Assembly (NCBI GenBank): GCA_025558095.1
Contig: JAIVFI010000012.1
Location: forward strand, 248,001 to 312,000
Length of the DNA stretch: 64,000 bases
Direction: 5' to 3'
Source of the DNA: Hyaloraphidium curvatum SAG 235-1
Taxonomy: Eukaryota > Fungi > Monoblepharomycota
Below, one piece after another: positions 3,054 to 33,923 of this stretch. The notes under the pieces are model-generated. The model had not been told where the DNA came from, made no database searches, and saw nothing but the letters and a program-made list of their open reading frames with translations. Made by a program: the position numbers and the translations under genes. How positions within the stretch are numbered: the first letter of the stretch is position 1; each line of letters opens with the position of its first letter.

Positions 3054-4619
3054 TCACCCCACCGTTCCTCCGATCTCGTCCAGGCACCCCACAAACAGCC
3101 GCATCAGCAGCACCGTCTTTGCGCTCGGCTCGCAGTAGTGCGTGCAGTCGTTCCCCCACGCCCCCTTCCCCGGGTAGTACCTGTACGGATGCGCCAGATG
3201 GAGCGAATGCAGCGCGCGCGAGTACCGCATGGTCGGCACCCCCGCCGCGTCGATCCCCGGCTGCGCCGCGGCGTTGCGCCAGTGCCCCTTTGCCAGGTAA
3301 TCCTCCCACGACGCGTAGGGGTGGCACTCGACCTGCGCGTTGCCCGGCTCGGAGAGGAGGCTCCAGGCGAAGGAGCCGTTCTGGAAGTGCTGCGGGGTGG
3401 ATTCGGCCCACGCCACGCGCGGCCAGCGGCCTTCCGACTGCCGGAGGTGCTTCAGCGCGGCGAGGCCGCGGGAGAAGCGGGACATGTCCTCGGCGTAGTG
3501 TTCCGCGGTGAGCGGGGTGAAGCCCGTCGCGTTGCCCGCGCGGATCTTTTTCACGGCGTCGGGGGAGGGCTTGGCGCCCTGGTTGTACCAGATGCCGAAG
3601 TTGACGACGACGTAGTCGTAGGAGCGCGAGTCGAAGATCTCCCCCATGGAGCGGACAAAGTCCTCGCCCGGCTGGTTCTCGCGGATAAAGTCCAGCGTGA
3701 TGTTGAACCCGAACGGCGGCGGCGGGTCGACCATCCGATTGCCTGGGTGGAAGGTCTTCGTCTTGTCCTTGGGTTGCCAGACCGTCCGGGAGAGGGGGAA
3801 GAACTTGGACGTGCCCGTGAGCCACTGCGCGACGAGCGAGTCGCCGACCGCCGCGATCCGCTTGTGGCCAAACAGGGCAAACAGCCGCGGGTCCGCGGCC
3901 AGCGCGGCCGACATGCGCACCGTCTCGTCGGTCGCGCCCTCGGGGATCCGGCCGGGGGGGTAGGGCAGCTCCAGCAGCGCCTTCATATCCAGCGCGCTCG
4001 CTGCTGCGGAGGGCGCCAGTAACGGCGAATTCGACCCAAAGTACGGGTCCGGCAAGCTGCAGGTCCGCGGCCGCCAATCCGTGTGCAGCGCCCGCATGTC
4101 GGACGTGCAGTTGCTGTCCCAGAAGGACGTGTTCCAGTTGTCGAAGGCGCGCAGCAGCGGGTGAGCGGCGACGGCGCCGGCGGGCCGCGGGACCCACTCG
4201 CCGTCGTCTGCGGCGGCCGAGCACCCGCACGGCGGGAGCGCTGTTCGATCCGGGGCACGATCCGGGGCATCGGCGGTGGGAACTCCCGCGGGTGCGGCAG
4301 GCGGGGCAGGCGGGGGTCCCAGCAGCGGCTCAAAGTCGCCGCCGGTCGGGCCGCCGTCCGCCGCGCCGGCCGTGCGGAATCCCCGCGGCGGGCCGTACGC
4401 CAGCGTCGCTATCAAACCGGCAACGACGGCGAACGACGACAGCCGCGCCACCACGCCGCGGTGGCGGTGCGCGAACGCCGCGCACGGCGGCGGCACCGCG
4501 AGCCCCGTCGCGCCCACGAGCGCGGAAACCGTGCGGAACGGCGCCAGCGCGACGGCAATCGCGGAATGCAGCAGCCCCGACGGCGGCGCCGGCTTGGACC
4601 GGCTGCGCGCTCGCGCCAT
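3054..4619 (-). CDS. PC-esterase/TBL-like (SGNH) polysaccharide O-acetyltransferase, type II membrane protein
   Basis: N-terminal TM and Pro-rich stem; motifs AVGDSL, VVVNFGIWY, ESTPQHF and DCTHYC (GDS...DCxH). Confidence 0.8.
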   Translation of the reverse strand: MARARSRSKPAPPSGLLHSAIAVALAPFRTVSALVGATGLAVPPPCAAFAHRHRGVVARLSSFAVVAGLIATLAYGPPRGFRTAGAADGGPTGGDFEPLLGPPPAPPAAPAGVPTADAPDRAPDRTALPPCGCSAAADDGEWVPRPAGAVAAHPLLRAFDNWNTSFWDSNCTSDMRALHTDWRPRTCSLPDPYFGSNSPLLAPSAAASALDMKALLELPYPPGRIPEGATDETVRMSAALAADPRLFALFGHKRIAAVGDSLVAQWLTGTSKFFPLSRTVWQPKDKTKTFHPGNRMVDPPPPFGFNITLDFIRENQPGEDFVRSMGEIFDSRSYDYVVVNFGIWYNQGAKPSPDAVKKIRAGNATGFTPLTAEHYAEDMSRFSRGLAALKHLRQSEGRWPRVAWAESTPQHFQNGSFAWSLLSEPGNAQVECHPYASWEDYLAKGHWRNAAAQPGIDAAGVPTMRYSRALHSLHLAHPYRYYPGKGAWGNDCTHYCEPSAKTVLLMRLFVGCLDEIGGTVG

Positions 4620-4860: not shown

Positions 4861-6350
4861 TCACCCGTAGCAGTACGACTCGAGCACCACGGTGATCCCC
4901 AGCCCGCGCAGGATGCCCCACAGGGCAAAGACGACCGTCAGCAGCGTGGCCACCAGCGCGCGCAGCGCCCCGTAGGTCACCTCGAACCCGAAGAACCTTG
5001 CCGGCTGCCAGCCCGCCGCGCACGCTTCCAGCCTGGCCGCGTGGCACGCCAGGGCGCCGCGCTCGGCGTCGGATCCGGATCGCAGGGCGATCGCGCGCGC
5101 GGCGTCGGCGCCCGCGCGGAGCACCCCGGCCGCGGCGCCGATCCGCGCGTTGTGCTCGCCGCGTACACGGCCAGGTTGTCCAGGGTGAACCCCAGCCACC
5201 AGGCGCCGGCGAGGAGCTCCCACAGGGGTATGCACGCCCCCGCGGCCAGGTTGAGCGCGACGGCGGGGAGCAGGGCGAGGGCGCTGACGGTCCAGGAGCG
5301 GATGCCGGCCATCAGCGACGTCTGCCAGCCGTGCCAGGTGTGCGCGAGGTGCTCGAGGATGGCGTAGACGGGGGCCCATTCGCACTCGTCCGGCGCGCCG
5401 GCCGCTGCCTGCCTGTAGCCGTCCAGCATGCGGCCGATCTCGACGGCGAGGCAGTGGCAGATGAGCCGCTGCGACAGCTGGGTCATGGGCGCCCTCGAGA
5501 AGCGGAACACCCTCGCGGCGATAAAACCGGCCCAGAACAGGATGATTGCCAGCAGTGCGGCGCCGACCAGGGCGCCCCACCACGAACTCCACAGGACCGC
5601 GGACGACACCGTGGGGGTCCAAAGCGGGCTGAAAAAAACCCCAAAACCTACGAGCACCATGCGGACAACGAAATCCCCGAGCATCCACCACCCGTTGCGG
5701 CGGCCGATGTTCCCCGCGCACGAGGGCAGCGGGCAAGGGCAGTTCGGGTCGCGTTCCTTGTGCGCGACGAGCCTTCCCCCGGTTCCGGATGGAGGTGCCG
5801 GCTGCTCTTCGTCCCCCTGCGCCTTGATGCCGCCGATCTTCCTATCGGGTGCCGGTGTCGGATCGACGAGCACTCTCCACCGCCACAGCAGGCAGAGCTG
5901 GTGCGACCGCAGATCGTTCGACGCGTCCCACGCCCGGAACAGCGCCGGCAGCGGCCAGCAGATCCCCATGCCGAAAAGCGAGACGGCCACCGACCCCACC
6001 GCGATGTTTTTCGCGCCGAAAGGCACGCTGGTCCCCGCCAAAGCGGGGTACGCTGCGAGGACGGCGACGGCGGCGGTCCAAATCGCGGGGCACACGGCGA
6101 CGAGCCAGCGCGTGCGGCCGCGCCGGGTGAGCGGCAGACAAAAGCGTGCAAACGCGCCGAGGAGGCGCGACGAGCGCGACGCGGCGTCGATCACGCCGGC
6201 GGCCGTCGGTGGTTCCGCCGCATCGAGCGACGCGAGCAGCGCGGACAGCGCGGCGTCCGCGGCGGCGTCGTCGAAGGCGCGGGCCGGCGGCGGCGCGGCA
6301 ACAAACGGCAACGCCGTGGAAAGCTCCTCTTCGCTCAGCGCGCCCGGCAT
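4861..6350 (-). pseudogene. 7-TM membrane protein, copy A (Gr/Or-DUF3537-like family); frameshifted near 5150
   Basis: ATG at 6350 (MPGALSEEEL). A 2-bp insertion relative to copy B (GAGCACAACG vs GAGCAACG) moves the C-terminus ...ARFFGFEVTYGAL...SYCYG into another frame. May be an assembly indel. Confidence 0.75.
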
Positions 6351-6767: not shown

Positions 6768-7100
6768 TCACAATATCCGCGCGATCCCCTTGCGGGAGTC
6801 GGAAGCGCGGCGGCGGAGAGCCCGCAGGCCAACGAGGAGCAGCCCGAGCGCGAGCGCCGCGAGCGCGATGGCGACCGGGAGGGATGACCGGGCTTCCGAA
6901 GGCGTGTCCGTCCCCGCCCCAAGTGTACCGTCGCCCGCAGACCGCTCCCCGGGTCCCTCCCGCGGGATCTCGGCGTCCGGGCCGTCCGTTTCGGGCGGGA
7001 CGAGGTGCCGCATCGCGTCCGCCCACACGTCCGCCTGGAGGCCGACGCCCGCGCTGGCCGGCGCCGCGAGGAAGAGGAGGAGAATGAGCGCGGCCTGCAT
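6768..7100 (-). CDS. Small signal-peptide plus single-TM protein (110 aa)
   Basis: MQAALILLLFLAAPASAG signal; LPVAIALAALALGLLLVGL TM followed by basic RALRRR. Confidence 0.55.
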   Translation of the reverse strand: MQAALILLLFLAAPASAGVGLQADVWADAMRHLVPPETDGPDAEIPREGPGERSAGDGTLGAGTDTPSEARSSLPVAIALAALALGLLLVGLRALRRRASDSRKGIARIL

Positions 7101-7209
7101 GGCCGCGGAGGGGGATCGCATCGCGATGGTGCGGGAGACGCGAGCGGGATTTGACCGCCTCCGGCACCCTCAGGTCTCAATCACCAACACGCTTCACGCG
7201 GGCCACGCG

Positions 7210-8705
7210 ATGCGGGCGCGCTGAGCGAAGAGGAGCTTTCCACGGCGTTGCCGTTTGTTGCCGCGCCGCCGCCGGCCCGCGCCTTCGACGACGCCGCCGC
7301 GGACGCCGCGCTGTCCGCGCTGCTCGCGTCGCTCGATGCGGCGGAACCACCGACGGCCGCCGGCGTGATCGATGCCGCGTCGCGCTCGTCCCGCCTCCTC
7401 GGCTGCTTCGCGCGCGTTTATCTGCCGCTCACCCGGCGCGGCCGCATGCGCTGGCTCGTCGCCCTGTGCCCCGCGATGTGGGCCGCCGTCGTCGCCGTGC
7501 TCGCCGCGTGGCCCGCTTTGGCCGGGTCCGGCGCGCCTTTCGGTGCGAAAAACATTGCGGCGGGGTCGTTGGCCGTCGCGCTTTTCGGCATGGGAATATG
7601 CTGGCCCCTGCCGGCGCTGTTCCGGGCGTGGGAGGCGTCGAACGATCTGCGGTCGCACCAGCTCTGCCTGCTGTGGCGGTGGAGAGTGCTCGTCGATCGG
7701 GCGGTCTCCGGAGGGGAGGCCGGTGGCGGGAAACGGCAGGGGGACGAAGAGCAGCCGGCACCTCCGTCCGGAGCCAAGGGTCGGCTCGTCGCCCACAAGG
7801 AACGGGATCCCAACTGCCCATGCTGGCTACCGTCTTGCGCGGGGAACCTCCCCCGCCGAAACGGGTGGTGGATGCTCGGGGATTTCTTGGTCCGGATGGT
7901 GATGCTGGGCTTCGGGGTCCACTTCAGCCCGCTGTGGACGCCCGTGGTTTCGTCCGCGGTCCTGTGGCGGACGTGGTGGGGCGGCCTGATTGGAGCCGCG
8001 GTGCTGGCCACGATCCTGTTCTGGGCCTTCTTTATCGCCGCGAGGGTGTTTCGCTTCTCGAGGGCGCCCATGACCCAGCTGTCGCAGCGGCTGATCTGCC
8101 GCTGCCTGACCATCGAGATCGGCCGCATGCTGGACGGCTACAGGCAGACCCCGGCCAGCCAGACGGACGGCGCACTGGACAAGCACGACTGGGCCTCCGT
8201 CTACGCCATCCTCGAGCACCTCGCGCACGCCTGGCACGGCTGGCAGACCGCGCTGATGGCCAGCACCCGCTCGTGGACCGTCAGCGCCCTCGCCCTTCTC
8301 CCCGCCGTCGCGCTCAACCTCGCCGCGGGGGCGTGCATCCCCCTGTGGGAGCTCCTCGCCGGCGCCTGGTGGCTGGGATTCACCCTGGACAACCTGGCCG
8401 TGTACGCGGCGAGCAACGCACGGATCGGCGCCGCGGCCGCGGTGCTCCGCGCGGGCGCCGACGCCGCGCGCGCGATCGCCCTGCGATCCGGATCCGACGC
8501 CGAGCGCGGCGCCCTGGCGTGCCACGCGGCCCGCCTCGAGGCGTGCGCGGCAGGCTGGCAGCCGGCGAGATTCTTTGGGTTCGAGGTGACATACGGGGCG
8601 CTGCGCGCGCTCGTTGCCACGCTGCTGACGGTCGTCTTTGCACTATGGGGGATCCTGCGCGGGCTGGGGATCACCGTGGTGCTCGAGTCGTACTGCTACG
8701 GGTGA
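7210..8705 (+). pseudogene. 7-TM membrane protein, copy B; 1-bp deletion just after the ATG, remainder intact
   Basis: ATGCGGGCGCGCTGA vs copy A ATGCCGGGCGCGCTGAGC. Long open frame 7248-8705 with seven hydrophobic segments. May be functional if the indel is an error. Confidence 0.75.
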
Positions 8706-17944: not shown

Positions 17945-18212
17945 GAGAACCCGGCGAGCGTGGGGTCGATCGCGATGAGTGGAGGTCAGCTGAGCTCGTG
18001 CGGCGGCGCTCCCACCGAATAGACATCCATCCTAGATGCTCGATCCATGCTGCTTCATCCGCGGCCGCGCTTCGGTGCCGGCGGTGAGGCGGACGGTCGT
18101 GATGACCCACCTCGAGGACCCGCGGTGCGATCGCACTGCCACAGGGCTCGGCAAACACGCCTTCTCGGATCGCGGGCCAACGAATCGGGGCCGCCACCGC
18201 GCCGGCGTGGCA

Positions 18213-19946
18213 ATGAATTCCCCGCCAGACGCGGCATCGGGCCCGCGGGTGTCGACCGGCGGGTCCGCGGACACGGAGACGGGCGGGAGTCTGCCCGGTT
18301 CCTCGGCATCGGCCGCGACGCTCGGCCCGTATCCGGGCGGCACGGGACCGCCGCCGCTGCCGCTCAACGGACCGCCGATGGAATCGACGTTCGCCTCGGG
18401 GGACGGTGCCGGCGGGCCGGCGGAGAAGCTTTTCCAGGCGGAGGCAGCCGGCACTGCAGCCAATGGGACGGCAAACGGCCTGGCCGCACCGTTGCTCCCG
18501 GCACCCAAGCCTCCCGACGAGGATGTCGACTTTGTGCAGGAGGTCTACAACATCACCAGTGTTTCGACGGCCCACGGCGTGTGGCGCGTCTTCGACAGGA
18601 AGCGCTCCATGGCGAACCGCCTCTGCTGGGCCGTCCTTTGGCTCACGGCCGCCGGGCTGTTCATCACCTATCTCGTGCTCCAGTCGATGTACCTCGCCGA
18701 GTCACCGACGAGCACCCTCATCACCCAGGAGGTCGTCAGCCCCATGCCCTTCCCCGCCGTCTCGATCTGCCTGAGCAGCCTCAACACCTCGCTGATCCGC
18801 GCCTTCGTGCGGCCCATCCCCCCTGGGCCACCCCAGCAACAGCTGGAGACGCTGCTCAACTCGAGCGGCGTGCTGTGCTACTTTGGCTGGCGCACGCTGC
18901 GGCAGCTCTGGAACTCGGACTACTCACTGGGCACCCAGTCGTGCCGCGAGAACGCGACGCTCACCTGGGCGGACTATCCCTTCGCATCGTCGCCGACGCT
19001 CTGCATCACCACCCCGCCGGGCCTCCTGGCGGAGCAGCCCGGCGTCTCGCTGCGGTTCATCGGCCGCCTTCCCTTCCTCGAACCCTTCGACACCGTCACC
19101 TACTCGCTCCGCACCCCGGAATCGCAGATCGAGCCCCTCCTCTCGAACTTTGTCGTCTTTGGCGCCAACACCCGCGTGCGGTTCCAGACCACCATCAGCA
19201 AATCCCTCAAGGAGTGCGATCCCAACCCGGGCGGCCAGCCCGTGTGTTTCTCGCGGTTCCAGCAGCAGTGCATCGAGCGCGCTTGCGACTGCAAGTACCC
19301 CGTCATCGAGCCCGGCATGGCCGAGGAGGACCTGGCGGCGCAGCTCCCCGGTTCCTGCGCGTCCAAGAACCGCGAAGGGACGTGCACGTACCACGACCCA
19401 ATTTTCCCGTGCCCCGACTCGAAGAAGCACCGCAACTGCACCCTCCAGACCCTGTGCGGCCCCACCGAGAGCAAGAAGGCCTGCCCGCTGCCGTCGTGCG
19501 AGGAGACGGACTACCCGCAGGTCGCCTCGCTGTCGCCCATCTCCGAGACGACGTTCGAGGACGTGGCCAACGGCACCGCGGGGACGCTATTCGTGCTTTC
19601 GGTGCTGCTCGAGACGCAGACCGTGACGCTGATCGAGGAGACCGAGGCGTACACGGTGCTCAGCTACCTCGGCGCCGTGGGCGGCATGATGGGCCTGCTG
19701 CTCGGCTTTTCGGTCCTGACCATCCTGGAGTGGTTTGAGGGCTGCTTCCACATCGGGACGAAGGTGGAGGAGATCATCGAGGAGGCGGCGGAGGACGCGG
19801 GGCTGATTTCCGATTCGGACGACGAGGAGGAGGGCAAGGCCGAGGACGTGTTTGCCGGGGTCGAGATGGCCGAGAGGGCGGCGACCGACGTCCCCAAGGC
19901 CGATGAGCCTGTGACGGTGGCCGACCGAGCGGCCACGGTGGCCTGA
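18213..19946 (+). CDS. DEG/ENaC/ASIC-family amiloride-sensitive ion channel subunit (intronless)
   Basis: Pre-TM1 STAHG, TM1, FPAVSIC, Cys-rich thumb, and TM2 YLGAVGGMMGLLLGFSVLTILEWFE with GxS filter. Start codon uncertain: the frame is open from 18036. Confidence 0.9.
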   Translation: MNSPPDAASGPRVSTGGSADTETGGSLPGSSASAATLGPYPGGTGPPPLPLNGPPMESTFASGDGAGGPAEKLFQAEAAGTAANGTANGLAAPLLPAPKPPDEDVDFVQEVYNITSVSTAHGVWRVFDRKRSMANRLCWAVLWLTAAGLFITYLVLQSMYLAESPTSTLITQEVVSPMPFPAVSICLSSLNTSLIRAFVRPIPPGPPQQQLETLLNSSGVLCYFGWRTLRQLWNSDYSLGTQSCRENATLTWADYPFASSPTLCITTPPGLLAEQPGVSLRFIGRLPFLEPFDTVTYSLRTPESQIEPLLSNFVVFGANTRVRFQTTISKSLKECDPNPGGQPVCFSRFQQQCIERACDCKYPVIEPGMAEEDLAAQLPGSCASKNREGTCTYHDPIFPCPDSKKHRNCTLQTLCGPTESKKACPLPSCEETDYPQVASLSPISETTFEDVANGTAGTLFVLSVLLETQTVTLIEETEAYTVLSYLGAVGGMMGLLLGFSVLTILEWFEGCFHIGTKVEEIIEEAAEDAGLISDSDDEEEGKAEDVFAGVEMAERAATDVPKADEPVTVADRAATVA

Positions 19947-20188
19947 GTTGCGGATCTGGCGACGGCCGATCGGGCGGGCACCGCGGCCTGAAGTGCCATT
20001 TCTTTATGGGGATGATGCAAATGCTATTTCTTTGTCTTTCTTGGCATTCGGTAGTTGTTTTGCGGGCAGATTCGGATTCAGGGGGTTTGTCGGGCTGCCG
20101 CATGCTTGACTCGAACCGTCCGCGGAGCGCCTCAGCAGCCATTCACCGCCCGAGGCAACCGGCACCAGCGCTCGTAGCGGACGAGAGC

Positions 20189-21263
20189 ATGAAGTCCATT
20201 TCGGCTTTCGCGACGTGCCTCCTGTTCTTGGCGTTCTCCGCCACGCTTCTTGGCGCGCCCAAGGCCCAAGCCCAGCAGGACCAGTGCTTCCCGGACCGCT
20301 TTCAATGCCAGTTCCCTCCTTCGGGCCCCAGCGCTACTTGCGTCTGTAACGGAGTGACCCTCACGACCCGCACTCTCGTTCAGGTATGTCTCCGGGCTCG
20401 ACCGACAGCATGCGGCCTGCGCTCAGAGGTGGCTTTCGCAGACCGTCTTCGTCTCCAGCACCGCTACTACCGCCTTTTGTACCCTCGTCGTCCCCGTGAC
20501 ATCTTTTGAGACTTCCATTTCAACCATAACGAGCACCTCGACGGCCGTAGTCGACCCCTCGGGGAGCGCAGTAGTGAGTGAAGTGAACCTGCCCTGAGTC
20601 ATCGGTCGCCGATCTCCTCGCGAACGACGGCATGGCCCGCGGGCACTCCTTTTGCTCACTGCTGATACAATTGCCGCTCCAGGTTGTTTCCACGAGCACG
20701 GTTTACCTCCCGAGCACGATTCCGATCACCACGACGGTCGTCGCCCTCCAGAGCACGCTCGTCTGCAACCCGAGCTACGTCTTCACTGTAAAGTGCCGCT
20801 CGAACTCCTTTTCCTATTGCTGATCCTGGTTTCCGCAGTCCACCATCACCAACACGGCCTCCCTTACCTCGTACACAACGCTTTCCCTCGCGACGCTGCC
20901 CAACCAGCCGCCCGTCCTTGTTTCGGGCACCTTGAGCCTCCTCTACACCTCGATCTCGGTGGTCTACGTCACGCAGACGGTGCGTGCCGGCGCGGCAGCA
21001 ACTTTCAGGGTGGTTTCCGTGCTCACAGCGGTCTGCAGGTCCCCACCAACGCACCGACGGCGACGATCACGGTCCCGACCATCATAACGCAGTACATCAC
21101 GGTGACCTCGGCGACGACAACGACTGCCCCGCCGACCTCGCCGACCGGGACGGCAAGCCGGGCCTTCTTCAAGCGCGATTCCGCCCCCGTGGATGGTGCG
21201 AAGGACGGGAACGGGGAGGAGCCGCTCAAGAAGAAGTTCGTCAGGCTTTTCGGGGTCCATTGA
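20189..21263 (+). CDS. Secreted Cys/Thr-rich cell-surface protein, multi-exon
   Basis: Signal peptide MKSISAFATCLLFLAFSATLLG; Cys-rich start; several short GT-AG introns; T/V-rich exons; KR site near the C-terminus. Confidence 0.65.
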
Positions 21264-21354
21264 TGGCCACATTGCCCGGATCTGCCTAGCACTTTCGTGC
21301 GACTCATGTACTATCTTTCCCGCTGTAATCGACTTGTTTCTTTTGCTTCGGTGG

Positions 21355-22550
21355 CCCGGAGGGGAAGCCGTGGAGGCGGAATATTTCGCGAAGGAAGAGC
21401 CGAGCGGTGTCGTCGGCGGAGAAGTCCTTCCGCGCGCCAGCGAAATGAGCCTGCTTGGTCGACCGATCGGCCACGACGAGCACGGCGTCGAATCCCTCGG
21501 ACTGGGGCAGGTCCGTGACGAAGTCCATACTGATCGAACGCCAAGGTCCGTCCGGAATTGGAAGTGGCTGGAGAAGGCCGTGCGGGGCATGGCGCGGGGC
21601 CTTGGTTCGCGTGCACGTCTCGCAGCTCCGAATGTAGCGGGCGACGGTGTCCCAAACACGCGGCCACCAAAAATCTCGCAATATGAGCTCCACAGTCTTG
21701 CGAATTCCGAAGTGGCCGGCAGTAACGGCATCGTGGCGGGTTCGGAGAAGCTCCGTCCGAGACTTGCCGGCCGGCACGAAGATGAGACTGTTGCGGTAGA
21801 GAACGCCATCGAGAAGATGGAAACGAGAAACGGACGCGTCGTGAGCCTCCAGAAGAGCGATAATGCGACGGGCGAATGGGTCCTTGGCCGTATCGCGACG
21901 GATCATGTCCAGGAAATCCAACGAAGTCGCGTGGAGCGCGGCGACCAGGTGCGGCCCGAGGAGCGTGACGCGCTGTTGCGTAGAGACATCGTCGAAGTTG
22001 CCCGGAACGTAGTCGGAGCGGCGAGAAAGCGCGTCGGCGACGACTTGATCGGTGCCGGGTCGATGCTTCAAAACAAAGTCGTAGCCCGCGAGGGTCATGG
22101 CCCATCGAGCCTGACGGCGATTGAGCATCTGCTGCTTCATGAAGAACTCCAGGTTCTTGTGATCCGTGAAGACGTCGACTTTATGTGGGCTACCCTCGAG
22201 GTATCGCCGCCACGCCTTGAACGCGTCGACAACTGCGAGTAGCTCCTTGTCTTAGATCGGGTAGTTGATCTCCGCCGGCTGGAACTTCCGGGAAAGAAAC
22301 GCCACGGGATGCATAAGCCCGTCGTCGGGGGCGGGCTGCGACAGCACGGCTCCGAGGGCGAAGTCGGAAGCATCTGCCTCGACTGTGTACGGAACGGCTG
22401 GATCGGCGTTACGCAGGAACGGAGCCGAAGTGAAAGCGGATTTGAGCGCATCGAAGGCTGCGCGAGCTTCCGGCGTGAAACGGAACGGATCGCCCGGCTT
22501 GAGCTTAGTGAGGTCCGTGAGCGGAATCGCGGGGTGGCAAAGTTCGCGGC
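21355..22550 (-). mobile_element. Degenerate Ty3/gypsy LTR-retrotransposon pol fragment (RT connection, RNase H, integrase N-terminus)
   Basis: VEADASDFALGAVLSQ, YPI*DKELLAVV (TAA at 22252-22254), TDHKNL, RQARW, HHCC zinc finger H..AGH..CETC, ISMDFVTDLP. Truncated after RLHGFP. Boundaries approximate; no LTR seen. Confidence 0.92.
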
Positions 22551-22700
22551 ACAGCCCGGCCGGCGGGGTTTGGACGGGTGCCGACGGCCGCAACAACCTG
22601 GGCTTGCCGCAGGGAGACACAGCTCGTGCTGTGGGAGCCACCCGCGTGCGAGTGACCACCGGACGCTTCGCCAGGCGCACTAGGGCGCGTTCGGGTTGCG

Positions 22701-24543
22701 ATGGCCCGGCCTTCGCGGGATTCGGCCCGCGCCAGGTCTGCGCGGTCCGCCGGAGTCGCATTGGTCGTCTTTTCCACCTTCTTGAGCCTCCTCGCCTCGC
22801 GCGCGCACGGAAACGAAATCGTTTGCGGGCTGAAGTACAAGCTGACGACAATCAAAGGTCTCGTCGAAGCGGACAAGAGCGTCGCGCTGTTCCCGGACTC
22901 CATGGTCCGCCCGGCGAGGTCGAATCCCCCCAATCCCCTCAACTGGTTCGGCAAGCCGACGACTCTCGGCAGAGGACAGTTCGGGGTCGTGCGCCTCGCC
23001 GCGTTGAAGGGCTCGGTGGCATCGGACTACGACAAAGAGCTGGCCGGACCGGACCAACCTGCGCCAAAAGAGAGGCTGTTCGTGATCAAGCGTTCCTCCT
23101 ACGAGGCAGAAAAGGTCAACATGCCGGCCATGCAGCGGATCGAATGGGAGAGGGTCACGGCACCTCGGATTATTGAGGCGGTCAATGGCGGGCCGTTCAT
23201 CATCAAGACCTGGGCGACGTGGACGTGGCCGGTGAAGCCGAAACAAGGTTTCAAATTCATTGACATCAACTACGAGCTCTACGCGGCCGTAACGCCTGGA
23301 ACCGGAGACTTGGTCGCCGAAATTGAGGGCAAGGGCAAGTGGTTCCAAACCGGCCAGACCCCCGCGATTCCGCTGGCCAAGGCGCGGGAGCTCATCGCCA
23401 AGCTGGCTCTGGCAATCGGCTACATCCACGGGAAGGGCATCGTCCACAGGGACATCAAGCCGGACAACATTATCATGTCGTTGACCGGGGAGCCGATGCT
23501 TGCGGACTTCGGATCTGCCATTCACGGAAGCGTAGGCGGCTTTGGGTGCCCCGGTCCGCCTATCGTAATTGCGGGTTTGCTCCCTCAATAGGACCTTGCC
23601 AAGTGGACTCGCCAGACCATTATGATCGCGGCTGGCGGGGACCGCCGGTTCACGGCCCCAGAGGTCCGCAGATTCGACTGCACGGGAGGGAGCGCAGCGA
23701 CCGAAAGGAAAGCGCCATGTGGGAACACCGATCTCGGTTGTTGAACGAATCTCTTACTGGCGGATGTCTGCTCCAGATGGGCGAGGTAGCGACTGGTGGT
23801 CCCTCGGAAGTACGTTGTTGGGAGATTCGGTGTTGCCACCCACCAATCTGACCACCGGCGTCCCCTTCAGTCGTCGCCTACTTCATCCTCATTGGCGAGG
23901 CCCCGGGCAAGTTTGTGCCCTACGACAACTTCCCGTTTATCGAGGAGATTGTCTCAAACAAGAACGACGTTGGGGGGTCCTTTTGCTCGGTACGTTCTCT
24001 GCTCTCGTGATGCTGCTCGGAATGCTCATGGCCATACACATAGTGGAGTCCCAAGTATCTGGACGAGACCAAGCTGGCCAAGATCGGGAACGCCAACGCA
24101 ATCGATTTCGTCCGGCGGCTGCTCGTTGCTGACCCGAAAAAGCGGCTCGGCCGCTATTCGTCAAACAAGCTTGTAGTTCAGGGTACGTCATTTTGTCAAG
24201 GTGTTCTATGCTCCCTGATTGAGCTAACTGGCCTCCGTTGCATGGTACGACAGGATACCAGCAGGTCCTGTGCCACCCGTTCCTGAAATCCGTCTCCAAG
24301 AAGCTCCTCCTCCAAACCGGCCTGCGGTTCGCGGAAGCCATCAACGAGCCCATCGCATGGCCGAGCTCGGACGCAAGCAACCCGGACGCGGACTGGGACG
24401 AGCTCGGCATCACGCCGCCGCAGCCAAGTCCGCCGAACCAGCAGCCCCCGGTGATGCAGGACAACTCCCAAGCGCAAAAGAAGAAGAACGTCGAGGACTA
24501 CTACACCACGATGCCGCCCATTCCGGGGGTCACCGATGTGTAG
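22701..24543 (+). CDS. Ser/Thr protein kinase (AGC-like) with N-terminal signal peptide/anchor, multi-exon
   Basis: LGRGQFGVV, FVIK, HRDIKPDN, DFG; after splicing FTAPE, DWWSLG, DFVRRLLVADPKKRLG and HPFL. First intron 23532-23591. Confidence 0.85.
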
Positions 24544-27487: not shown

Positions 27488-28666
27488 ATGCCGCGGCCTT
27501 TGTTGCCCATTGCGGGTCCCACGGCGCGGGCCCTAGCGGCAGCCAGTGCGCTGCTGGCAGTCAGTGCCCTGCTGTTATCTTTGGCTTCCTGGGACCTCTT
27601 GTGGCGATGGTCTTTCCGGAGCGACCGCGCCAACGGAGCCGTTTCGCGTGCGTTGCCGTCGCATCAAGCTTCTTCCGCCGCCTCAATCGACGCCGGCCAA
27701 CCGCGCGTCACCCCGCGGTTCGCGTACCTGATCCAGGCCGCACGGAGCAACATCGGCCACGTACCGCGACTGCTGCGGGCCATACACCGGCCGGAACACA
27801 CGTACGCCGTGCACGTGGACCGCAAGGCTACCGACATGCCCGAGTACGCGGCCGTGCTGGACCTGGTTTCGCGGGCCCCGTACCGGGACAACGTGCACCT
27901 CATGCCGTCGACCTTGGTGACATACACGGGCATATCGCAGATCCTCAACACCATTGAAGCGATAGAGTTGCTGCTCGGAAAGTCGGCGGGATGGACACAC
28001 TTTATCAACCTGAGCGGGGCCGACTACCCCCTGATTGCCCAGGAGGACTTTGCCCAGATCCTGCGGAACGAGTCTTTGGACGCGCAGGGCCGTCCGACGA
28101 ACGTCAGCTTCATACAAGTGTGGGCCAATTCCCCATCTGCGAAGAGGTGGCACGTGCTGGCCTCGGACCCCGCTCTCCTCGACCTGGACTCGGATATTGT
28201 CGTCCATCATTCGAGCAGGAACAAGCTCGTCCCCAAGCTCCCGTACCTCGTCGGCCCGGCCTGGGTGATCCTGCACCGCGAGCTTTGCGAAAGCATCGCC
28301 GGCTCGCCGGAGATGCGGAGGCTGCTCCTGGCCATGGCGAGCACGAAGGTCCCGGAGGAGGCCGTCTTTCAGAATTTCATCACTTGGACCGAGACGGGCC
28401 GGCGGTTCGCGGGGAAGGTGGCGGATGACTGCCTGCGGTACGACGAGCCCATTCCGGGGGAATCGCACACGAGGTGGCTCGTGAACGCATCGCAGGTGGA
28501 GCGGGCGGTGAGCAGGGGGGCGGTCTTTGCGCGCAAGTTCACGGCGGAGAGCTCGATGCCGGATTACGTGGATCAGCTGCAGAAAGAGAGCAGAGAGCAG
28601 ATCATGGAAGCCGTCAGACGCCGCGTGGAGAGGGCGGTCAAGCTGATGCAGGGGAAGGATGGTTAG
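27488..28666 (+). CDS. GT14 core-2/I-branching glycosyltransferase (xylosyl/glucuronosyltransferase-like)
   Basis: N-terminal TM; FAYLI, VHVDRK, WTHFINLSGADYPL and FARKF. Confidence 0.9.
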   Translation: MPRPLLPIAGPTARALAAASALLAVSALLLSLASWDLLWRWSFRSDRANGAVSRALPSHQASSAASIDAGQPRVTPRFAYLIQAARSNIGHVPRLLRAIHRPEHTYAVHVDRKATDMPEYAAVLDLVSRAPYRDNVHLMPSTLVTYTGISQILNTIEAIELLLGKSAGWTHFINLSGADYPLIAQEDFAQILRNESLDAQGRPTNVSFIQVWANSPSAKRWHVLASDPALLDLDSDIVVHHSSRNKLVPKLPYLVGPAWVILHRELCESIAGSPEMRRLLLAMASTKVPEEAVFQNFITWTETGRRFAGKVADDCLRYDEPIPGESHTRWLVNASQVERAVSRGAVFARKFTAESSMPDYVDQLQKESREQIMEAVRRRVERAVKLMQGKDG

Positions 28667-29480
28667 GACGTATTCATACGGCGCAGTCAGCGCTACATAC
28701 AAGCATCCATCATCGGAGCTATTCCCCCCCTGGACCTGGCGGAAGAAAGCGAGCAACGTTGCCAGGATCTTCCGCCGACACGATCTTCAACCGCTCCACC
28801 ACCGCCGGTCGACGTCACAGCGACTTCACGTAAGGTGCTCTCCGTGGAGCAAGCAGAACAAAGAGGAATGTGCTTGAGGTGAAGTGTCGGACTCCAGAAA
28901 GATGTGGAAGCACTAGACCATTGTGCACCACATCACAAGGGCAAATAAGCATAGAAGCAACAAATCGGACAATGGATGCAGCTGCGGAGGCCGAGTATGT
29001 ATTCGATAAGGCTGTCGCACCCCCGCCCGTAGCCTGGCCGCGTTCCTCGGGCAGAGGCGGAGTTCCTCCACTTCACCCTCACGAGTAATCGACCAATGCC
29101 GATGGGGAAGTGCTCGGCTGCTGTTGAGTACTGAGTTACTCCGCAGTGGTGCCGGATAGAAGCGATAGCCGGATGTACGTCGTATGTAGGGCTGGAGTTC
29201 TCAGTTGATTTCTGCGGAAACTGTCTCCCACGGCCGCCGCCCCGGTCCATTAACACGATGGCCACTCCTTTTCAGCTACACGTTCCTGATGTCATAGGAC
29301 AGTTTGTTGCTTTCTTGCCGCGGTTTTTGACGGCAGTGCTTCGCCGGCGTGGATACCCCCCCAGTCGACGCCGGCGTAACGGCGTGGCACCGTCTGCTGT
29401 TGGGGCGGACTGTTTCAGCCCGCGCAGACCGGTTGGCGCACTGCAGGATACCTAGTTTGACCATCGGCATCGGCACGGAA

Positions 29481-30911
29481 ATGGCTCCTGATCCGCCATC
29501 GCCGACGCCGTTCCCCTTCACGGACCGCGAATGGGTTACGCTTTTCCCCGTGGCGCCGCCTGCGCTGCCGCTCGCGCCGCCGCTGCTGGACCCGGCGAAG
29601 GAACTGCGCGAAGCCGAAGCGCTGACCGCCGAGGGGCTACTGGCCGCGTTGAACGCCGCGAGCCCGCTGCGGCGCGCAACTCAGCTGCAGCTGCTCGCGG
29701 GCAAGCTGACCCGGTGGCCTCTCGCCGTGTTCTTTGTTTATGCCTGCCTCTCTGCAGCTGCGGTGGGCTGCGTCGCGCCGCTGCTCGCCGATGTCGTGGC
29801 CCCGCAGCAGCTCGCAGTCGGCGTGACCTGCGTTTTGCTTCAGTCGTTTGTCTGGCTGCCCATCGCCGCCCTGTCGGTGCGGTTCCGCGCCCGTATCCAG
29901 CAGGCCGCGAACCCGCACGAGCTTTCCGGCCACCCGCTCGCTATCGTGGCACGCTGGTTGCAGCTCGCGACCCGCCAGGAGCGCGATCTTCTGGCGCACG
30001 ATCCGGCTGACTCGCTCTGCCCGTGTGCAAAATCCGCATGTGCGGGGAACACGCCCACGAATGCGTTCCGTCTCCGCATTTTGGAGCTCGTCGGCCAGTT
30101 TTCTGTGCTTTTGACTGCCCTCATCTTCACCTACTGGACGTCATTTAGCGCCCCGGGAGCGTTTTCTGCGCAATGGTGGGTCGGCTTCACAGGAGTACTG
30201 GCTCTCGTGTGGATGTCGATGCCCATGTTCTCCAACGTTCTCGGCCGCGCGTCGGCAGGTACTCCATCCCTCTTGCTTTCCCTCCGGTTGCACCATCGCG
30301 CCGTGACGATTGTCTTGGGCGGGCTTCTGGACCGGTACCGCACCGCGCTCCAGCACGGGGGGACCGTTCCGGACGAAGCTTCGGAGCCGTATCTGGTGCT
30401 ACTCCCGGCCCTCGCTTCGACGTGGGAAACCCGCTTTCCCATCCCCGTCTCGGGCGGCCCTGCACTCTTTGGCCACGGCGTGGTCCCGCTCATGCTTGCC
30501 CTCGTCAACGCCGCCTCGGGGTCCTGCATCCCTCTCTACACGATCCTCCCCCCTGTGTACGCCTTCATCATGCTGATCCAGGATCTCGTCAACTTTTCCG
30601 TCGCCAACTCTCAGGTATCGGCCGTCGCCCGCCTTGTTTCGGACTGCCGCCGCGAAGTTCGCGCCCTCCTTGTGCTCGCCGGCCCCGATCCTTCCCCTTA
30701 CGCCGCCCGCGCCCTGGAGCGGCACCTCGATCTGCTCGCCTCGTTCGAAAACGCCGAGCCGTACCAGGCCCGATTCCTGGGCTTTCCTGTGGGGTTTGGC
30801 ATGCTCCGAACCGTGCTCGCCACCGTCTTGACGGTGTGCATCGGGATGGGGACGCTGCTGAGGAGCTCGGGGGTGAGGCTCACGACGCTGTTTGCGTGTC
30901 CGGCCGGCTGA
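29481..30911 (+). CDS. 7-TM membrane protein, divergent third paralog of the family at 4861-8705
   Basis: Shares HPL...RW, H.P...CPC....CAGN, G.CIP, AN..V and ARFLGFPVGFGMLRTVLATVLTV with copies A and B; intact and intronless. Confidence 0.85.
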   Translation: MAPDPPSPTPFPFTDREWVTLFPVAPPALPLAPPLLDPAKELREAEALTAEGLLAALNAASPLRRATQLQLLAGKLTRWPLAVFFVYACLSAAAVGCVAPLLADVVAPQQLAVGVTCVLLQSFVWLPIAALSVRFRARIQQAANPHELSGHPLAIVARWLQLATRQERDLLAHDPADSLCPCAKSACAGNTPTNAFRLRILELVGQFSVLLTALIFTYWTSFSAPGAFSAQWWVGFTGVLALVWMSMPMFSNVLGRASAGTPSLLLSLRLHHRAVTIVLGGLLDRYRTALQHGGTVPDEASEPYLVLLPALASTWETRFPIPVSGGPALFGHGVVPLMLALVNAASGSCIPLYTILPPVYAFIMLIQDLVNFSVANSQVSAVARLVSDCRREVRALLVLAGPDPSPYAARALERHLDLLASFENAEPYQARFLGFPVGFGMLRTVLATVLTVCIGMGTLLRSSGVRLTTLFACPAG

Positions 30912-31382
30912 ATGGTTGGGCGGGGTTGTATGGGGCTTGGAAGCGCATTTAGGGACCTGGTGCTTCTCTTGGTATACGTCTAGTTTTGAAGATGCACTAG
31001 TTTGCTGTATGCATCTAAGATGCGAAGATCTGAGCCTCCTAGCTCTTGAACGTCCATCCATCAACGAGCGCATCCATTCCATACACGCGCGAACGAAGAG
31101 CCCAAACAACACCGAGGCTATTCCTCTTCAACTTGAAGGCATTCGTTTGTGCCGGACGTGCGGATGTCGAGGAAAGCGGTTCCGCTCAAGTTCGCATCCT
31201 CACGCAATGCTCTCCATGAAGCAAGCGGAACAAGAGGAGGGCATTTTCGGTGAAGCGCACACTTCGCGCACACCGGCTGTGGCCGCGCCATTCGAACAGA
31301 TCAAAATTCGTCAATTAGATCCCGTTACATGGGATTCCATTCGAGTGATGGACATAGTCTAGATGTTAATAAGGATATTCCC

Positions 31383-33923
31383 TCACCGCTCCCCGCTGAA
31401 CCCGCGCACCTTCACCGTCTTGGTCGCCCTGTCGCTCCTCCCGCACGCGTCGCGCACGACCAGGTCGATCTGGTAGAAGTAGTACTGCTCCGCCGTCGGC
31501 GCATGGTCCCCAACCACGAACGACCCCTGCCGCCCGCGCAGCCCGTCCACCTCCGAGTGCTGGTGGCAAAGGTACCCCTGGCAGTGCACCAGGACCACGT
31601 TCCACTCGAAGCTCGCGGCGGCGGTGATCTCGGTGCCGTCCCAGTTGGTCGCGCGGCCGGAGAACTGCACCGTCTGGCCGATGGCGGCCTCGGGGGCGCC
31701 GGTGGGGGCGGTGATCTGCACGTCCGGGAGGTAGGGCGCCTCGGGCCCGCAGTAGAGCCTCGCCGAGGCCCAGTCCAGGTGCGCGTTGTCGAAATCGAAC
31801 GGGTACCGCGCGGGATCGGGCCGGTTACCCACGAGGCGCAGGCCAGACCACCGCGTCAGGTTGGTGATCGAGATGCGCCACGCCGGGTCGCGCGCACGCA
31901 GCGGGGCCAGGCCCTGAGCCTGCCGCACGTCGGTGGTCGAGTAGAGCAGCCTGAGGCCGTTGCTCTGCCCGGTGCGCACGACGAACTCGGCCCATGCGGC
32001 CTGCTCGCCCCGCCCGATGTGGATCTCGTCGTCGATCCCCACGTCGGCCACAAACTTCCAGCACCGGCCCGCGGCGCCCAGGTTGAGGTCGATCACGCTG
32101 TAAGCCTTGGTTCCGAGCCCGGCTGTAAAGAACTCGCGGCCGACGGAGATGACCCTGCTGCGGCTGTTGGCCGAGTTGGGCGCCGGCCCGACCGAGGTGT
32201 CCATCCCGATGGGGCCCCATCCGCCGTTCATGGCCACGCTCAGGCGGGAGCGGGGGAAGTTGCCCTTGCTCAGCCACATCACCGTCTCCCACTGCTGCCC
32301 GTCGGGCTCCCTGGGCAGCGGCGAGACGCGGATGCGGTTGGGCGGGCTGCACAACGTGTTGACAGGGCCGGCGGCGCGCTTGGTCGTGGTCTGCTTGGGG
32401 CCCGACGTGATGGTCGGCGGGCGATACCCGCGCACCTCCAAGCGGCGGATGCGGCCGTTCGAGCCGCACCCGCGGCACTGCAGGACCATGTAGACATAGC
32501 CGTCAAAGGGCGAGGTGCGGAAGCTGACGATGTTGTCGGCGCCCTCGGCGAACACCTTGACGTCCCCCGGGTTGGCGGGGTTGACGGTCCACATGGTCCC
32601 GCGGGCGTAGTCGGTGAAGATGAAGTGGTTCGCCCACCCTCCCGGGAAGTAGGACGGGAGGATGACGCCGCCGATGCTGGCCGCGCTCGTGCCGTCGTGC
32701 GGGTAGACAAAGAGCACGTCTTCGAGGCGCACGCGCGGGTACCCGACGCTCTCGGCGCCCTCGTTGTAGATTCGCTGGCAGATGGGCATGTCCTGCGCGC
32801 CGTCGAGGGCGCGCGCGCGCGCCTCCCAGCAGGGGAAGCCGAGGTTGGACCCGCGGCGGATGCGCATCACCGATTCCCAAGTGAAGAAGCCGACCGTACC
32901 GCAGATGACCTCGCGCGTGGTGCCGGGCGGGTAGTGGGTGCACCGCCACGGCTGGCGCAGCCCGACGGCCCAGACCATGCTGCGGGCGCGGCGCACGCTG
33001 CCGTCGTAGAAGGGGTTGTCCGGCAGCCCGCGCAGCACGCCGTCGGGGGTGTTGGCCTCCATGCGGAGGATCTTGCCGCCGAGGAAGTTGACGTCCATGG
33101 ACAGGGCGCGGTCGGTGCGGGCGATGCCGCGCCAGTTCTCGCGCCAGTAGCTGCCTTCGAGCATCTGGCCCTCGCCGACCGAGGCCCAGAGCTTGCCGTC
33201 CGAGCCAAACCAGATGTCTCCGAGTGCGTGGGTGGTCCACACCATGGGGCTGCAGTCCTCGCCCCACCACGATTCCCTCATGAGGCTGCGCGTGCAGGCG
33301 CCAAAGACCACCCTCGGGCTGCCGACCACGACGTACGTGTCCTGCGCGGCGTCGTAGGCCAGCTCGTAGCGGTTGATCCGGTTGTACTTGATCTGGCACA
33401 TCTGGCCCAAAGATTGACAGCCCTTGTTGGGGTCGTCGACGTAGGCCACGTAGATGAACCCGCGGGCCGGGTTGCGCAGGAAGTCCGGGTGGACGGCCAT
33501 CGAAGTCAGCCCGCGGTCGCCCATTGCGGGCCGCACGCGCTCGGTGAGGTCGATGAACATGCGCCCGCGCTGGAACTGCCAGTCCCGCAGCAGCCATATG
33601 CGGCCCGACTTTGACGAGACGAGGGCGAAGCGCGGCGATATGAATTCGATGTCGGTGAGCCACGCGCCGAAGCCGGAGGCGACCTCGCGCACGGAGACGC
33701 CGGCCGGCATGCCGTACGGCCAGGCCGCGGAGGGGGCGACGAGGCTGAGCAGCGCGAGGAGCGCCAGCAGCGGCGGCGCCCAGAGGCCGACGGGTGCCGC
33801 ACGCAGGGGCAGCGCTGCCCGCTGCGGCCCATTGCCGCCGCAGGAACCGCCCGTCGGCGCCGTGTGGCAAGGGGACCGCGGGGCCGCCGGCGCCGGCGGG
33901 GCCGCCGCGCCGCCGAAACGCAT
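31383..33923 (-). CDS. Secreted PQQ-dependent glucose/sorbosone dehydrogenase-type beta-propeller + NPCBM/NEW2 domain + PKD-like domain
   Basis: DRGLTSMAVHPDF, FGSDGKLWASVGEG, GKILRM, DNPFY, AVGLRQPWR; NPCBM-like NGGWGPIGMDTSVG, FVADVGIDDE, DWASARL; C-terminal EWNVVLVHC...CHQH. Confidence 0.85.
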   Translation of the reverse strand: MRFGGAAAPPAPAAPRSPCHTAPTGGSCGGNGPQRAALPLRAAPVGLWAPPLLALLALLSLVAPSAAWPYGMPAGVSVREVASGFGAWLTDIEFISPRFALVSSKSGRIWLLRDWQFQRGRMFIDLTERVRPAMGDRGLTSMAVHPDFLRNPARGFIYVAYVDDPNKGCQSLGQMCQIKYNRINRYELAYDAAQDTYVVVGSPRVVFGACTRSLMRESWWGEDCSPMVWTTHALGDIWFGSDGKLWASVGEGQMLEGSYWRENWRGIARTDRALSMDVNFLGGKILRMEANTPDGVLRGLPDNPFYDGSVRRARSMVWAVGLRQPWRCTHYPPGTTREVICGTVGFFTWESVMRIRRGSNLGFPCWEARARALDGAQDMPICQRIYNEGAESVGYPRVRLEDVLFVYPHDGTSAASIGGVILPSYFPGGWANHFIFTDYARGTMWTVNPANPGDVKVFAEGADNIVSFRTSPFDGYVYMVLQCRGCGSNGRIRRLEVRGYRPPTITSGPKQTTTKRAAGPVNTLCSPPNRIRVSPLPREPDGQQWETVMWLSKGNFPRSRLSVAMNGGWGPIGMDTSVGPAPNSANSRSRVISVGREFFTAGLGTKAYSVIDLNLGAAGRCWKFVADVGIDDEIHIGRGEQAAWAEFVVRTGQSNGLRLLYSTTDVRQAQGLAPLRARDPAWRISITNLTRWSGLRLVGNRPDPARYPFDFDNAHLDWASARLYCGPEAPYLPDVQITAPTGAPEAAIGQTVQFSGRATNWDGTEITAAASFEWNVVLVHCQGYLCHQHSEVDGLRGRQGSFVVGDHAPTAEQYYFYQIDLVVRDACGRSDRATKTVKVRGFSGER

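Follow-up and report, generated by a model that had tools for sequence, protein, structure and literature searches.

The 64,000-nucleotide stretch of contig JAIVFI010000012.1 of the fungus Hyaloraphidium curvatum SAG 235-1 analysed here (the window) carries, at 7210-8705, a gene that an initial annotation had interpreted as a member of an expanded family of membrane proteins resembling insect odorant and gustatory receptors (Or and Gr). The feature is real, and as far as the fold is concerned this interpretation is supported: the gene (copy 2) and its two relatives in the window (copies 1 and 3; Table 1) represent a known channel superfamily in a greatly expanded variant, with a function that we infer. 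It is considered highly probable that the family belongs to the seven-transmembrane ion channel (7TMIC) superfamily. The three genes belong to an extensive family of strongly diverged paralogs, and a role of its proteins as tetrameric ligand-gated cation channels for chemical sensing, proposed by analogy with the insect receptors, is favoured with modest confidence.

The architecture of the family is first evident from its alignment of 113 sequences, the profile of which displays seven hydrophobic segments, as the initial annotation had described; single-sequence hydropathy with a cut-off of at least 1.3 gives six peaks for copy 2 and seven for copy 3. The first hydrophobic stretch begins near residue 80, and the claim that a signal peptide is absent is therefore borne out. 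The long inner loops and the very short loop between transmembrane segments TM5 and TM6 are likewise recovered, with median lengths of 79, 73, and 67 aa for the inner loops IL1, IL2, and IL3 and of 10, 13, and 7 aa for the outer loops EL1-3, the last of which is the TM5-TM6 loop. In 96 of the 113 rows, the mean number of Lys plus Arg residues is 9.1, 9.1, 9.3, and 7.8 in the N-terminus, IL1, IL2, and IL3, compared with 1.0, 0.5, 0.1, and 1.4 in EL1, EL2, EL3, and the C-terminus. Loop lengths and charge distribution together fit a predicted topology with the N-terminus inside and the C-terminus outside, and this positive-inside pattern agrees, as a prediction, with the N-in, seven-segment arrangement that had been put forward.

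Structural models extend this agreement to the fold. In the model of copy 2, TM4 (residues 255-312), TM5 (328-373), and TM6 (378-425) form long helices that build a cytoplasmic anchor, and the same layout is seen in copy 3. TM7 is split in both models, consisting of a helix (429-448), strands (452-457), and a second helix (461-484) in copy 2 and of a helix (406-420), a hairpin, and a helix (439-462) in copy 3; helices at 49-74 of copy 2, ahead of TM1, where a re-entrant TM0 would be expected, fall inside the range aligned to Or/Gr N-termini. The comparison with Orco and Gr structures proposed by the initial annotation ranks insect Or/Gr channels first: they fill the top 8, top 6, and top 19 rows in three comparisons, and their chains align near end to end, above all other folds, in five. 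The Foldseek TM-scores to Or/Gr of 0.25-0.46 lie below 0.5, and the structural alignments have 6-12% identity with a root-mean-square deviation of about 5-6.7 Å. The initial annotation had named a GPCR-like or transporter-like fold, or the lack of a TM7a/TM7b anchor, as evidence against its reading; neither the copy 2 nor the copy 3 model is of this kind, and TM7a, the beta-hairpin, and TM7b are all present. At the sequence level, Pfam and PDB searches gave no link from the family to known 7TMICs, and the language-model neighbours, which include DUF3537 (0.86 and 0.92), provide a weak one.

The most conserved parts of the family are EL3, TM7b, and the C-terminus, the last of which had already been recognised as a conservation maximum, and both motifs quoted at that time are present. 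TM7b, the hairpin, and the IL1 motif have the lowest entropy (1.7-1.8 bits), whereas TM1-TM5 reach the maximum of about 3.0, and an equal pattern of a conserved pore region and variable TM1-TM5 is described for Ors in 10.1101/2023.08.30.555482. Hairpin residue G456 is kept in 110/113 members. A small/polar stripe along TM7b (residues 466, 470, 473, 477, 480, and 484) fits a water-lined pore. According to alignment end points, residue 481 falls on F444 of BmGr9 in four of five BmGr9 rows and on V468 of MhOr5 in two of three MhOr5 rows; because the copy-3 model is offset by about three residues, we infer from these end points the register of TM7b, in which the following positions are to be read. 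T473, corresponding to the pore threonine T436, occurs in 109/113 members, and residue 481, a putative gate, is hydrophobic in 106/113. The position of the gating Gln is occupied by S/G/T in 112/113 members and that of the second gate residue, I440, by G/A in 108/113. Mutation I440A of BmGr9 raises the resting current (PMC11100771), and an outline of gating is given in PMC12635824. The strict TM7 motif of animal GRLs, given as (T/S)Yhhhhh(Q/K/E)(F/L/M) in PMC7746228, is matched by none of the 113 sequences; position by position, T/S is found in 109, Y/F in 0, Q/K/E in 0, and F/L/M in 25.

Two further features are, judging by the sequences compared, particular to this family. All four residues of a His/Cys motif in IL1 (H195, C202, C204, and C209) are present in 112/113 aligned members; neither this motif nor the length of IL1 had been noted in the initial annotation, and the four residues probably form a zinc knot with a structural role. 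Additionally, C375 and C495 occur together in 111/113 members, and the copy 2 model contains short strands at 375-377 and 488-490; a predicted disulfide between the two cysteines probably holds the pore helix against the loop that joins TM5 and TM6.

The expansion claimed by the initial annotation extends far beyond three genes. A phmmer search with copy 2 against 1.84 billion representatives clustered at 50% identity gave 272 matches at E ≤0.001 and 150 at E ≤1e-10, and members were sampled from these 150, the best of the 272. Organism names were looked up for 21 of the 150. Ten matches taken down the ranking all came from H. curvatum, on ten contigs; among ten of least typical composition, four came from H. 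curvatum and six were metagenome or Logan records. All seven records lacking a species name (including P0001) lie within the 25 matches of lowest GC-codon bias, and the eight looked up from the remaining 125 were all H. curvatum. The named members number 16 (including P0002 and P0155), on 14 contigs, which together with the three window loci sets a firm minimum of at least 19 in this species. Extrapolation from this non-random sample suggests that about 80-130 of the 150 matches belong to H. curvatum; clusters at 50% identity conceal close paralogs, and the family likely comprises around a hundred genes or more. No separate entry for any of the three window copies was found in the protein collection, so that annotated counts probably understate the family.

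The closest relatives of copy 2, with 60-65% identity, are also from H. curvatum, and the median pairwise identity across the family is 27%. A FastTree phylogeny of 122 rows is star-like, with long-branch warnings; named members are distributed throughout and environmental rows are nested among them, and the radiation is therefore likely shared by H. curvatum and unsampled relatives. Its members are probably gained and lost in a birth-and-death mode of evolution.

Within the window, which consists of GC-rich eukaryotic DNA (61-72% GC), tblastn and the family hidden Markov model run on six frames both recovered exactly three loci of the family, with no further copy, in accordance with the number originally proposed. 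All three are collinear with their relatives and without introns, and the neighbouring genes contain short GT-AG introns of 51-109 nt. Copy 3 (28% protein identity to copy 2, E 3e-22) is the only intact open reading frame (ORF) of the three, and the coordinates first assigned to the paralogs hold in this case; those of copies 1 and 2 enclose frame lesions that the initial annotation had not noted. In copy 2, the proposed reading frame from the ATG at 7210 is not an ORF: this ATG, the ancestral start, is out of frame by one base (ATG CGG GCG CGC TGA), one base fewer than in copy 1 being present directly after it. The frame 7212-8702 is open over 497 codons, and its first in-frame ATG, at 7446, lies just upstream of TM1; a start there would yield 419 aa with TM1-TM7 kept and the helices at 49-74 lost. 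Copy 1 carries two additional bases near 5154, and from this point within TM6 the reading frame changes, so that TM7 and the greater part of the TM6 extension are read in a different frame. Copies 1 and 2 share 90% DNA identity, with similarity ending at the start and stop codons, and by sequence comparison they are a recent inverted duplication. The ratio of non-synonymous to synonymous substitution rates (dN/dS) between them amounts to 0.36 when 489 codons are compared and falls to 0.056 in the 94 codons that follow the copy-1 shift (13 synonymous and two non-synonymous changes); the lesions are therefore very recent or assembly errors, and copy 2, the gene under study, may be damaged. The 90% identical pair encloses a 117-aa ORF in its spacer (6768-7121, minus strand), the N-terminus of which is signal-like and the C-terminal part of which contains a single hydrophobic stretch.

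Transcript cover was examined in a sequencing run (X1) that is not on record as RNA and behaves as RNA, with at least 15 GT-AG joints in neighbouring genes; its contigs show neither the strand nor the level of transcription. RNA-type contigs cover copy 1 at 5475-5890 and copy 2 at 7615-8228, in both cases with no differences, and a single contig, at 29452-31034, spans all of copy 3 with no differences and no gaps. On the latter contig, a minus-strand-type intron at 29397-29451 lies at the 5' end of copy 3, which suggests an antisense or overlapping transcript.

The family shares with the insect Or/Orco/Gr channels compared here (MhOr5 7LIC/7LID, AaegOR10 8V00, AgamOR28 8V3C, DmGr43a 8JM9, BmGr9 8VC1, and Orco 6C70) the predicted 7-TM packing, the long TM4-6 anchor helices, the TM7a/beta-hairpin/TM7b arrangement, a conserved pore helix with a threonine, variable TM1-TM5, and a large multigene repertoire. 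It differs from them in the absence of TYhhhhhQF, the long IL1 with its HCCC motif, the outer cysteine pair, a C-terminal strand beyond TM7b, and a unicellular fungal host. The chytrid GRLs, described as single genes in two Spizellomyces species by Benton et al. 2020 (PMC7746228), are also fungal 7TMIC candidates; SpunGRL1 and SpalGRL1 have a similar hairpin before TM7 (FQLYGFVV in SpunGRL1) and, like the present family, keep only one of the four TM7 motif positions. In contrast, they occur as one gene per species, Spizellomyces forms zoospores, and inspection by eye of about the first 400 residues indicates a short IL1 and no HCCC motif. Plant DUF3537 (PF12056) proteins belong to the 7TMIC fold class, in families of 4-12 members (PMC7746228). 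PF12056 gave no Pfam match for the three window copies and is absent from the best 25 of the 27 families (E up to 1) found for 98 members, among which no PHTF family is matched either. Filing under Gr/GRL or DUF3537 was rejected in view of the unmatched TM7 motif and PF12056. With respect to Class-B/PHTF-like 7TMICs (Himmel et al. 2023), the point of comparison is the family's IL1 of about 79 aa with its His/Cys motif. The 2020 survey gives a total of 17 7TMIC proteins for unicellular eukaryotes, with at most six per species (PMC7746228), and a 2023 screen states that earlier chytrid members were not recovered and that functional knowledge of 7TMICs is nearly confined to insects (10.1101/2023.08.30.555482). 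Hyaloraphidium is named 0 times in three core 7TMIC papers, and no link between it and a 7TMIC family was found in a literature search that covered mainly open-access main texts. PMC6899921 and PMC8371127 present H. curvatum as a non-flagellated early-diverging fungus with a lifestyle listed as unknown.

In the mechanism proposed, the proteins would adopt the predicted insect Or/Gr fold with N-in topology. By analogy with Or/Gr channels, four subunits would join through the TM4-6/TM7a anchor, and the variable TM1-TM6 bundle would hold a paralog-specific ligand pocket. Ligand binding would shift TM5 and TM7b, and in consequence the small polar residue 480 would take the place of the hydrophobic plug at 481; cations would then enter, growth, uptake or spore release would be altered, and H. 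curvatum would detect many small molecules. It is proposed more tentatively that, independently of animals, a non-motile unicellular fungus has acquired ionotropic chemoreceptors in numbers comparable to those of insects (100-250 genes), and that these arose from a 7TMIC lineage not recognised before, which would be characterised by a zinc knot and a distinct gate chemistry.

Other explanations can be weighed against the same evidence. The lack of a profile-level sequence link, the TM-scores below 0.5, and the unique HCCC site and cysteine pair would be compatible with a lineage-specific helical membrane family outside the 7TMICs, the Or/Gr likeness of which arose by convergence or generic helix packing. 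Such an origin is very unlikely given the near end-to-end alignment of Or/Gr chains, the features that agree with Or/Gr (the hairpin-split TM7, the pattern of loop lengths, and the threonine of the pore), and the similar hairpin in SpunGRL1, a known unicellular GRL. True 7TMICs could instead serve as a surveillance repertoire that detects bacterial, parasite or non-self signals and triggers defence or cell death, rather than sensing nutrients or the habitat. A star-like radiation, recent duplication, and frame lesions are typical of birth-and-death recognition families, and here they are accompanied by about 27% median identity, an inverted duplication, and a host that does not swim; chemosensory families, however, show an equal mode of evolution, no positive selection was seen between copies 1 and 2, and no fused effector or death domain was found among the longer proteins, which is a weak test. 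This role is accordingly regarded as unlikely.

It is rated as fairly unlikely that these 7TMIC-fold proteins are not receptors and instead form pores for solutes or ions, constitutive or weakly gated, or have a non-channel role. One hydrophobic plug position is kept, and a conserved pore helix combined with roughly a hundred highly diverged TM1-TM5 bundles favours ligand diversity over housekeeping transport, although the small second gate residue, the effect of I440A in BmGr9, the absence of the gating Gln, and the lack of an assigned function for PHTF, GrlHz, and DUF3537 would suit such pores. Ligand-gated sensory channels are the preferred, putative role, and two of the three window copies have frame lesions.

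Table 1. Positions of the three loci in the window and of features within copy 2
Feature	Positions	Strand	Remarks
Copy 1, 7TMIC-like gene	4861-6350	-	Inverted head-to-head duplicate of copy 2
Copy 2, 7TMIC-fold gene	7210-8705	+	Gene under study; predicted fold
Copy 3, intact intronless 476-aa paralog	29481-30911	+	
H-x6-C-x-C-x4-C motif in IL1 (H195, C202, C204, C209)	7794..7838	+	Predicted zinc site
C375, in the 7-residue TM5-TM6 outer loop	8334..8336	+	Predicted disulfide partner of C495
TM7a cytoplasmic anchor helix (429-448)	8496..8555	+	DSSP of copy 2 model
Beta-hairpin TM7a-TM7b, ARFFGFEVT	8565..8591	+	Model strands 452-453, 456-457
TM7b, predicted pore helix	8592..8663	+	Small/polar stripe; hydrophobic 481
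C495, near the C-terminus, outer side	8694..8696	+	Conserved in 111/113

Among the neighbouring genes, a DEG/ENaC-type channel gene is located at 18036-19946 on the plus strand (Pfam ASC, E 5.8e-28), with RNA-type contig cover at 18147-20380. In a DEG/ENaC survey that included Fungi, the reported candidates were confined to holozoans, one alveolate, and one stramenopile (PMC10507113), and a fungal member may thus be unreported so far. Plant-like glycan genes are found at 3054-4619 (-), 27488-28666 (+), and 31383-33923 (-), encoding a PC-esterase-like protein (below the cut-off), a core-2/I-branching enzyme, and a GSDH plus NPCBM protein, respectively. An integrase/RNase H fragment at 20964-22760, which we take to be retrotransposon-like, is multi-copy in both runs.

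If the more tentative proposal of an independently evolved, insect-sized repertoire is true, no large sensory family of the Or/Gr type would have been known outside animals before this one, which is located beside an animal-type DEG/ENaC channel. About a hundred members in a single fungus would demonstrate that animals have no monopoly on large expansions of ionotropic receptors. With so many natural variants, it could be examined whether 7TMICs outside animals are gated by ligands and how gating works in a pore that lacks the Gln/Phe pair, and the family would provide a first handle on the ecology of H. curvatum.
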